Origin: a virus
Taxonomy: Duplodnaviria > Heunggongvirae > Uroviricota > Caudoviricetes
IMG/VR virus record: IMGVR_UViG_2675903425_000026
Length of the DNA stretch: 5,072 nucleotides
Strand: one strand, 5' to 3'
Both the position numbers and the translations under genes were made by a program. Of this stretch, positions 1 to 727 are shown piece by piece. Every line of letters begins with the position of its first letter. The first letter of the stretch is position 1. The notes beneath the pieces were generated by a model. The model saw only the letters and a program-made list of their open reading frames with translations, was not told the DNA's origin and did not search any database.

Positions 1-727
1 CGAACAATATCCCGGTGCTTGTTCAGCTCCCGCAGCGCGGCGCAGACTCGCTCCCACTTCTGAACATCACTTTTCGCCCTGCGCAGCGCCAGGTTTGCCC
101 TGCGCAGGGACGGAAAAATCAGCTCATCTGCTTGCGTTTCGGTAAACGATGGCAACGGCTGCACAATGTCCGCCACAGTTTCTGTTTTAATTTCTTCCTG
201 TGTTGCGGCTTCCCGGACTGGTAACGCAGCACCTGCTGGCTGAGGAAAGGCCTTACCATCATTTTTCGTTACCGGCGCGGCTTTCGGATCTGCTGGTAAA
301 TTACCCCCCGACATGCAGTAACGAAATTTACCGTTCTGATTAACGCGTGCCAGCCGCCCCGTTGCGGTTACCACCGCCAGCGTGGAAGCAACCTTGCGAG
401 TACTGACGCCGAACTTACCCGCCAGTTCCTCACACGTTTTAGCACCATCCTGACCGATAAACTCAACCATCATGTCTGCGGTAACTTTTGGAGCGACCTC
501 TTCGGTTACCACATCCGGCGCTTCAGGTTGTAGTGCCTGCCCTTCGGTTACCCCGGCTTCACCTTCGACAGCCAGAAACCAGGTGTGACCCGTTTTATCA
601 ACAACGCCATTTTTTTGAGTTCCCACAGTTCGTTAAGAACTTCTTCACGGCTGATATCAAGCCGCGCCGCCAGTTCAACAGAATTGGCTTTTCCCATCGC
701 TTTCAGTGCATGCAATACAGTTTCCAT
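1..727 (-). CDS. Tandem winged-helix (wHTH) protein, 3'-partial at the window edge, interrupted by a frameshift at the T7 run 610-616; possible pseudogene or homopolymer assembly error
   Basis: ATG at 727-725 with GAGGT SD upstream, 25 nt after the dnaC-like stop. This frame gives [39 protein letters not shown] then stops at 550-548 (60 codons). Adding one base in the homopolymer joins a frame that is open from 632 to position 1 (no stop in 203 codons) and restores a complete first wHTH (..[18 protein letters not shown]) that aligns with a second wHTH copy ([53 protein letters not shown]). The track omits it because no in-window stop exists. Confidence 0.5.

Follow-up and report, generated by a model that had tools for sequence, protein, structure and literature searches.

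What interrupts the gene at the left end of this virus record: a real mutation, a flaw of the draft sequence, or a site at which the reading frame is programmed to change? The question concerns a 5,072-nt stretch of DNA (the window), in which an ORF for a predicted winged-helix protein ends early, with a 7-nt homopolymer run at the point of the break. A preliminary description of the window had listed an inactivating mutation first, a homopolymer assembly error second, and programmed frameshifting as the least likely of the three.

The frame break and the corrected gene

The ORF that starts at ATG 727 on the minus strand ends at a TAA codon in positions 550 to 548 and encodes 59 amino acids (ORF listing and translation). 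The frame breaks at the only run of seven T residues in this stretch (positions 610 to 616), which corresponds to A7 in the mRNA; both coordinates are as first described. The homopolymer scan finds two 7-nt runs in total, and one 8-nt run, in the whole window. From a point just 5′ of the T7 run, the −1 frame stays open through window position 1, and in Escherichia coli O157:H7 EDL933 it runs on for 43 nt beyond that position before it reaches a stop codon. The window holds 727 of the 770 nt of the frameshifted gene (positions 1 to 727, minus strand), with the last 43 nt and the stop codon lying beyond position 1. Insertion of one A into the run yields a single ORF of 256 codons, so the expectation that one added base would join the open frame to position 1 holds.

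The truncated ORF (positions 548 to 727, minus strand) consists of 39 native residues, which cover helices 1 to 3, followed by 20 out-of-frame residues and the TAA codon. The remainder of the gene (positions 1 to 609, minus strand) lies in the −1 frame and is untranslated from the 727 start; it codes for the wing of domain 1, a linker, a second HTH-like domain, and a long C-terminal helix. A Shine-Dalgarno-like GAGGT (positions 737 to 741, minus strand), read from the sequence, is located 9 nt 5′ of ATG 727, which indicates that 727 is the real start, and the intact homologs begin at the identical METV... start.

A Pfam search with the uncorrected 59-aa ORF gives no match. The HMM search of the corrected translation, which had been proposed in the preliminary description, retrieves the Pfam family DUF1627 (PF07789) with 324.1 bits (cut-off, 28.1; E value, 1.6e-97). 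The match spans residues 91 to 242 of the corrected protein and positions 1 to 152 of the 155 in the model. The same protein matches PHROG 630 over its full length, with residues 1 to 252 aligned to profile positions 1 to 252 of 253 (E value, 1.6e-131). These two matches show that the downstream open frame is a genuine coding sequence and not a chance ORF. The gene product is a putative DNA-binding protein of the DUF1627/YdaW family.

Contigs from several sources, at least 1,000 in number, contain the exact 59-aa sequence, which is also UniProt entry Q8X456_ECO57; the cluster of this fragment has 10 member sequences, all of them near-identical. In EDL933, the PGAP label of the gene is “DUF1627 domain-containing protein, frameshifted.” An Rfam scan of the window finds no match, and a promoter and terminator scan of window positions 1 to 1600 finds neither.

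Domain architecture of the corrected protein

A structure was predicted with AlphaFold2 for an intact homolog (P0002; 98% identical) from an alignment of 24 close homologs. Domain 1 comprises residues 1 to 52 (positions 573 to 727, minus strand) and is interrupted after residue 39. Its model contains helices at residues 4 to 11, 16 to 23, and 27 to 39 and strands at residues 13 to 15, 43 to 46, and 49 to 52, with pLDDT values of 81 to 87. Foldseek aligns it with the winged-helix structures 2g7u, 1qbj, 4wcg, and 4awx at an rmsd of 1.0 to 1.7 Å over 50 to 57 columns, with a probability of 1.00 and E values of 0.04 to 0.1. Overall, the domain fits winged helices of the IclR, Z-alpha, FeoC, and DtxR types (rmsd, 1 to 2 Å), with E values of 0.02 to 0.1, which are weak because the domain is short. 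The score against the HTH_11 model is 24.3 bits, just under the cut-off of 25. On the basis of the model, domain 1 is confidently predicted to be a winged helix with the H1-S1-H2-H3-S2-S3 topology.

Helix 3 of winged-helix domains is usually the one that contacts DNA. The frame is broken after codon 39 (K39), where predicted helix 3 ends and shortly ahead of the residues (43 to 52) that form the β-hairpin wing. The earlier placement of the break inside the wing was therefore approximately right in location; the break precedes the wing, all of which is lost.

Residues 55 to 80 form a low-confidence linker in the AlphaFold2 model. The second HTH-like domain, at residues ∼84 to 140 (positions 309 to 479, minus strand), lies at the start of the Pfam DUF1627 model. 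It is modeled with helices at residues 84 to 94, 99 to 106, and 110 to 123 (pLDDT, 48 to 68), and a wing is absent from the model; for residues 84 to 129, this second helical segment, DSSP calls four helices in the same pLDDT range. Its HMM scores are below the cut-offs (HTH_PafC, 25.3 bits versus 32; FeoC, 20.7 versus 21), and there are weak matches to MarR-type and Ren-like PHROGs. Residues 124 to 189, which overlap the end of the helical segment, are of low confidence and mostly unstructured, and residues 197 to 255 are predicted to form a long C-terminal helix. When the family profile is searched against PDB sequences, only marginal winged-helix matches appear (best E value, 0.027).

The two domains had been said to align residue by residue, which is an overstatement. 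BLASTP gives no alignment between them at an E value of ≤100; hhalign in global mode gives 16% identity with an E value of 0.041 and a probability of 0.7%, and in local mode it aligns 27 columns with an E value of 0.017. An internal duplication of the winged helix was considered and rejected, as neither program detects significant similarity. The description of the protein as a tandem winged helix is plausible at the level of the predicted fold: it stands with confidence for domain 1, whereas domain 2 is a lower-confidence three-helix bundle with sub-threshold HMM matches.

Source prophage and gene neighborhood

Window positions 1 to 800 are 100% identical to the chromosomes of E. coli O157:H7 strains EDL933, TW14359, EC4115, Xuzhou21, and SS17 and of dozens more complete O157:H7 genomes; the same query finds up to 6 DUF1627 places per O157:H7 record. 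The gene order in EDL933 is that of a cro-like regulator, a YdaT-family gene, an O-like HTH initiator, a DnaC/IstB-type ATPase, and the DUF1627 gene, followed by genes for DUF977, DUF551, hokD, DUF968, RusA, and Q. This arrangement corresponds to the early region of a Rac/Qin-type lambdoid prophage. In the window, all on the minus strand, the ATPase, which is a DnaC-type helicase loader, occupies positions 753 to 1493, directly upstream of the DUF1627 gene; the O-like initiator, positions 1500 to 2477; and the YdaT-family gene, positions 2485 to 2877.

The N gap mentioned in the preliminary description is found inside the YdaT-family gene, where 50 N's at positions 2725 to 2774 stand for 83 nt of EDL933 sequence. 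The length of the gap is therefore arbitrary, and coordinates to the right of it are offset by 33 nt relative to EDL933.

The integrase of the EDL933 prophage, annotated as an Arm DNA-binding domain protein, is frameshifted and truncated; it adjoins ynfA, at positions 3657 to 4339 of the EDL933 locus (L003), ∼5 kb past the right end of the window. With its integrase broken, the prophage is defective, immobile, and non-excisable. Among the prophages of strain Sakai, Sp12 has a DnaC-type loader and a disrupted integrase, and its excision was undetected (Asadulghani et al. 2009, PMC2669165). The prophage described here fits Sp12. The main text of that paper carries no ECs gene numbers, and we therefore infer the assignment from the shared features, namely, the DnaC-type loader and the disrupted integrase.

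Several further features of this prophage can be recognized in the window. The O-like initiator gene contains overlapping TCAAnnnTTGAnGGG-like repeats with a 15-nt period, in at least 5 copies (positions 2038 to 2127), and a second repeat pair, CTGACGGATCRGG, is found at positions 1970 to 2003. The TCAAnnnTTGAnGGG-like repeats resemble iterons, and for this reason the replication origin of the prophage is probably located there, within the initiator gene. A cI-like gene (positions 3274 to 3645, plus strand) has an A8 run of its own (positions 3278 to 3285, plus strand) in codons 2 to 4 (ATG CAA AAA AAA GAA). This run is in frame here and is a further slippage-prone tract of the same prophage. 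The immunity region also holds a RelB/RelE-type toxin-antitoxin pair (positions 3667 to 3857 and 3859 to 4137, plus strand), which sits between the cI-like gene and a zinc-binding ORF of the ECs_2282 family (positions 4568 to 4774, minus strand).

Distribution of the A7 and A8 alleles

The run length was surveyed in 5,426 complete E. coli genomes, with one best place counted per record. For 287 records the top match is an exact copy of the T7 80-mer, and for 164 it is an exact copy of the T8 81-mer, the latter from serotypes O26, O121, O39, and others. Serotypes were checked in a spread sample drawn from the 676 matching genomes, which includes 26 exact T7 records. The serotype is stated in the name of 15 of these, and all 15 are O157 (14 O157:H7 and one O157); the other 11 have no stated serotype. 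All 34 non-exact matches in the sample span 81 nt and hence are in frame.

The syntenic prophage of E. coli O26 RM10386 encodes an intact 253-aa protein (WP_000450872.1), and the first ∼530 nt of the gene are identical in EDL933 and RM10386 save for A8 in place of A7. The same O26 locus (L002, positions 6181 to 6922) offers a mirror case, in which the DUF1627 gene is intact and the adjacent gene for a DnaC-like ATP-binding protein is annotated as frameshifted.

Among the other homologous loci that were retrieved, 87 of 88 are in frame. The run in these 87 is A8 in 32, is broken as AAAAGAAA (K-R-N or K-R-K) in 50, and is shorter in 5. A split into two ORFs is thus not conserved among these homologs; in the preliminary description, such a split with the same boundary, together with reads that confirm seven T's, was to count against its reading. 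Phage PhiR5_2 has an intact 256-aa copy that is annotated as belonging to the YdaW family. A DUF1627 gene with 83% DNA identity to the E. coli gene is also present in PP818812.1 (L005, positions 1461 to 2213), a record named “Actinobacillus phage vB_Apl-pPE4”; an enterobacterial lambdoid module would not be expected in a phage assigned to Actinobacillus pleuropneumoniae.

An unbiased pattern scan of IMG/VR, in which runs of A6 to A9 were permitted, gives 120 matches, with A8 in 106, A7 in 14, and A6 or A9 in none. In 12 A7 loci, identity to the window reaches 99.35% or more across 1.0 to 1.5 kb, which assigns these loci to the O157 clone. The remaining two, L144 and L182, have A7 in clearly different allele backgrounds; they stem either from separate, rare losses of a base at this hotspot or from errors in those draft assemblies. 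The comparison of homopolymer length in homologous prophages, as envisaged at the outset, therefore separates A8, seen in O26 RM10386 and most IMG/VR matches, from A7, seen mostly in the O157 clone.

The presence of A8 in the syntenic O26 prophage, in other loci, and in IMG/VR identifies the lesion as a clone-fixed A8-to-A7 deletion and not as a conserved gene organization. In the intact alleles, the run belongs to the codons AAA AAA AAT (K-K-N), and T7 at positions 610 to 616 marks the site from which 1 nt is missing. In all likelihood, this is a vertically inherited deletion in the K38-K39-N40 codons that became fixed in the O157:H7 clone and makes the gene a pseudogene. Of the readings considered from the beginning, it is the inactivating mutation that the contrast of a clonal A7 allele with intact A8 alleles supports.

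Origin and consequences of the deletion

Given the observed lesion, its one-base difference from the intact alleles, its clonal distribution, and the domain layout, the following course of events appears most likely. Replication slippage on the A8 run would have removed one A, after which the A7 allele became fixed in the O157:H7 clone. What is now translated from ATG 727 is the 59-aa peptide, which keeps helices 1 to 3 of the N-terminal winged helix and is devoid of the wing, the second HTH-like domain, and the long C-terminal helix. The DUF1627/YdaW gene would thereby have lost its function, and the pseudogene is one of several lesions in an already defective prophage. The DUF977 gene downstream might also be subject to a polar effect of the deletion. 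The loss of function may be incomplete, since insertion of a single A by RNA polymerase would restore the frame, and traces of the full-length protein might be made through such non-programmed slippage.

Among the A7 alleles, clustered substitutions are seen 3′ of the frameshift, namely, S140P, G142D, D147E, P152L, K155E, and N156S (in loci L092, L136, L162, L174, and L205), and each of them introduces the residue that is present in intact paralogous alleles. This pattern suggests patches of gene conversion between prophage copies, with the A7 lesion retained. No further stop codons or indels have accumulated in the downstream frame of the A7 alleles, which indicates either a recent lesion or continued maintenance of the sequence. 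The dN/dS ratio downstream of the break in these alleles is uninformative because of the clustered patches that match other alleles, and it neither supports nor opposes constraint.

Alternative explanations

The A8/A7 tract could be a phase-variable contingency locus, by which the gene would be reversibly turned on and off in populations. The A8 tract is indeed slippage-prone, and A7 in at least two further allele backgrounds (L144 and L182) suggests recurrence. However, T7 is uniform across the 287 complete records, with no reversion seen, and A7 and A8 are the only states found among the 120 IMG/VR matches. An 8-nt tract is counted as short for high-frequency switching in mismatch-repair-proficient E. 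coli, and many alleles carry an interrupted run (K-R-N) without consequence. Such switching is therefore improbable here.

An equally improbable proposal would view the A7 allele as a “pseudo-pseudogene,” in which an A added by RNA polymerase or a −1 slip of the ribosome restores a small but meaningful amount of the full-length YdaW-like protein in O157:H7. The tract would then act as an expression dimmer for a prophage DNA-binding protein, and the recurrence of A7 in L144 and L182 would reflect repeated selection and not error. Single-base deletions in A runs, with an intact ortholog in another strain, are known from E. coli pseudogenes that, like this one, can be restored by one A inserted in the transcript (Baranov et al. 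2005, PMC1088944). The productively rescued cases described in that work have 9-nt runs, whereas the run here, at 7 nt, is too short for slippage to be efficient or to be selected against. Single A or U residues are indeed added by the E. coli RNA polymerase within A/T runs, and the frequency climbs exponentially as the runs get longer (PMC5574713), so that trace amounts of corrected mRNA are to be expected as noise.

Somewhat less probable still, and very unlikely on its own terms, is an evolved −1 ribosomal frameshift or transcriptional slippage site that would produce the 59-aa HTH peptide and the full-length protein at a set ratio. The ribosome would need to shift by −1, or the transcript to gain one A; on A runs, both of these directions are favored, and the downstream frame is still fully open. 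Overlapping ORFs joined over an A/T run are likewise found in dnaX (A_AAA_AAG), in IS3-family transposases, and in Shigella mxiE (T9), where the long product also requires a −1 shift or one extra nucleotide in the transcript. In those systems, however, the split and the motif are conserved among homologs and stimulators are present, whereas here the split is limited to one clone, being absent from 87 of the 88 other loci and from the 106 A8 matches in IMG/VR.

The local sequence is no more favorable to recoding. The zero-frame codons are CUC AAA AAA AUG, and the resulting heptamer, C_AAA_AAA, is not a canonical X_XXY_YYZ; the P-site tRNA would have to re-pair on CAA. The predicted folding of the downstream RNA is unremarkable (z scores of −0.26 for 111 nt and −1.89 for 60 nt), and a small predicted hairpin 3′ of the run is at a spacing of 0. 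On either side of the run, the sequence is the same as in the in-frame O26 allele; nothing, then, has co-evolved with a shift. At 7 nt, the run is also below the lengths of productive transcriptional slippage, which are 9 nt or, in a few organisms, 8 nt (PMC1088944). The low rank first given to programmed frameshifting agrees with the in-frame homologs, the non-canonical heptamer, and the lack of an evident stimulator.

Adaptive truncation, in which the 59-aa HTH peptide has a function of its own or selection in O157:H7 favored losing the full-length protein, has a similarly slim chance of being correct. The A7 allele is fixed across the sampled O157:H7 genomes and has been kept despite the putative gene-conversion patches downstream, but clonal descent alone predicts fixation. 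The peptide has no wing and ends in 20 out-of-frame residues, its cluster consists of just 10 near-identical members, and the prophage has other inactivating lesions.

Finally, a sequencing or assembly error, with a true T8 and an intact gene, might have been expected from the draft quality of a window with a 50-N gap and from the proneness of homopolymers to error on some platforms, but it is excluded for practical purposes by the T7 allele, which is shared at 100% identity over 800 nt by many independent complete O157:H7 genomes, occurs as the exact 80-mer in the 287 complete records, and underlies the 59-aa ORF seen on contigs from several sources and in UniProt.

Family boundaries and implications

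The corrected protein belongs with the family represented by Pfam PF07789, PHROG 630, and YdaW, which is found in Rac- and Qin-type lambdoid prophages. In PhiR5_2 and in the O26 prophages, the gene directly follows that for a DnaC-type helicase loader, as it does here, where it is broken after codon 39. The literature covered by our search gives no function for DUF1627, and one paper uses the family as a synteny marker only.

The Pfam model, which corresponds to residues 91 to 242, omits the N-terminal winged helix. PHROGs contains, in addition to PHROG 630, two families of fragments, phrog_16668 (a 59-position profile that corresponds to residues 1 to 53) and phrog_11856 (residues 95 to 252). 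The split annotation seems to have shaped these family boundaries.

Domain 2 (residues 86 to 137) shows weak HMM similarity to the phage lambda Ren protein (phrog_142, “Ren-like exclusion protein”; E value, 4.6e-6). In lambda, ren is the first gene after the helicase loader, which is the map position of the DUF1627 gene here. However, the likeness is confined to one HTH-like segment, and the two proteins differ in size and architecture. The similarity to Ren might be of interest as a lead only.

The lesion had already been flagged by annotation pipelines and is, in that sense, an ordinary pseudogene. It shows only that the prophage, already immobile, can do without this copy of the gene, and the function of the family becomes no more testable by it. 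The A8 tract emerges as a probable recurrent deletion hotspot. For annotation, the DUF1627 fragment should be joined with the 59-aa “DNA-binding protein” upstream of it into one pseudogene, and the frame break is a genuine clonal marker of the O157:H7 prophage, not a defect of a draft contig.
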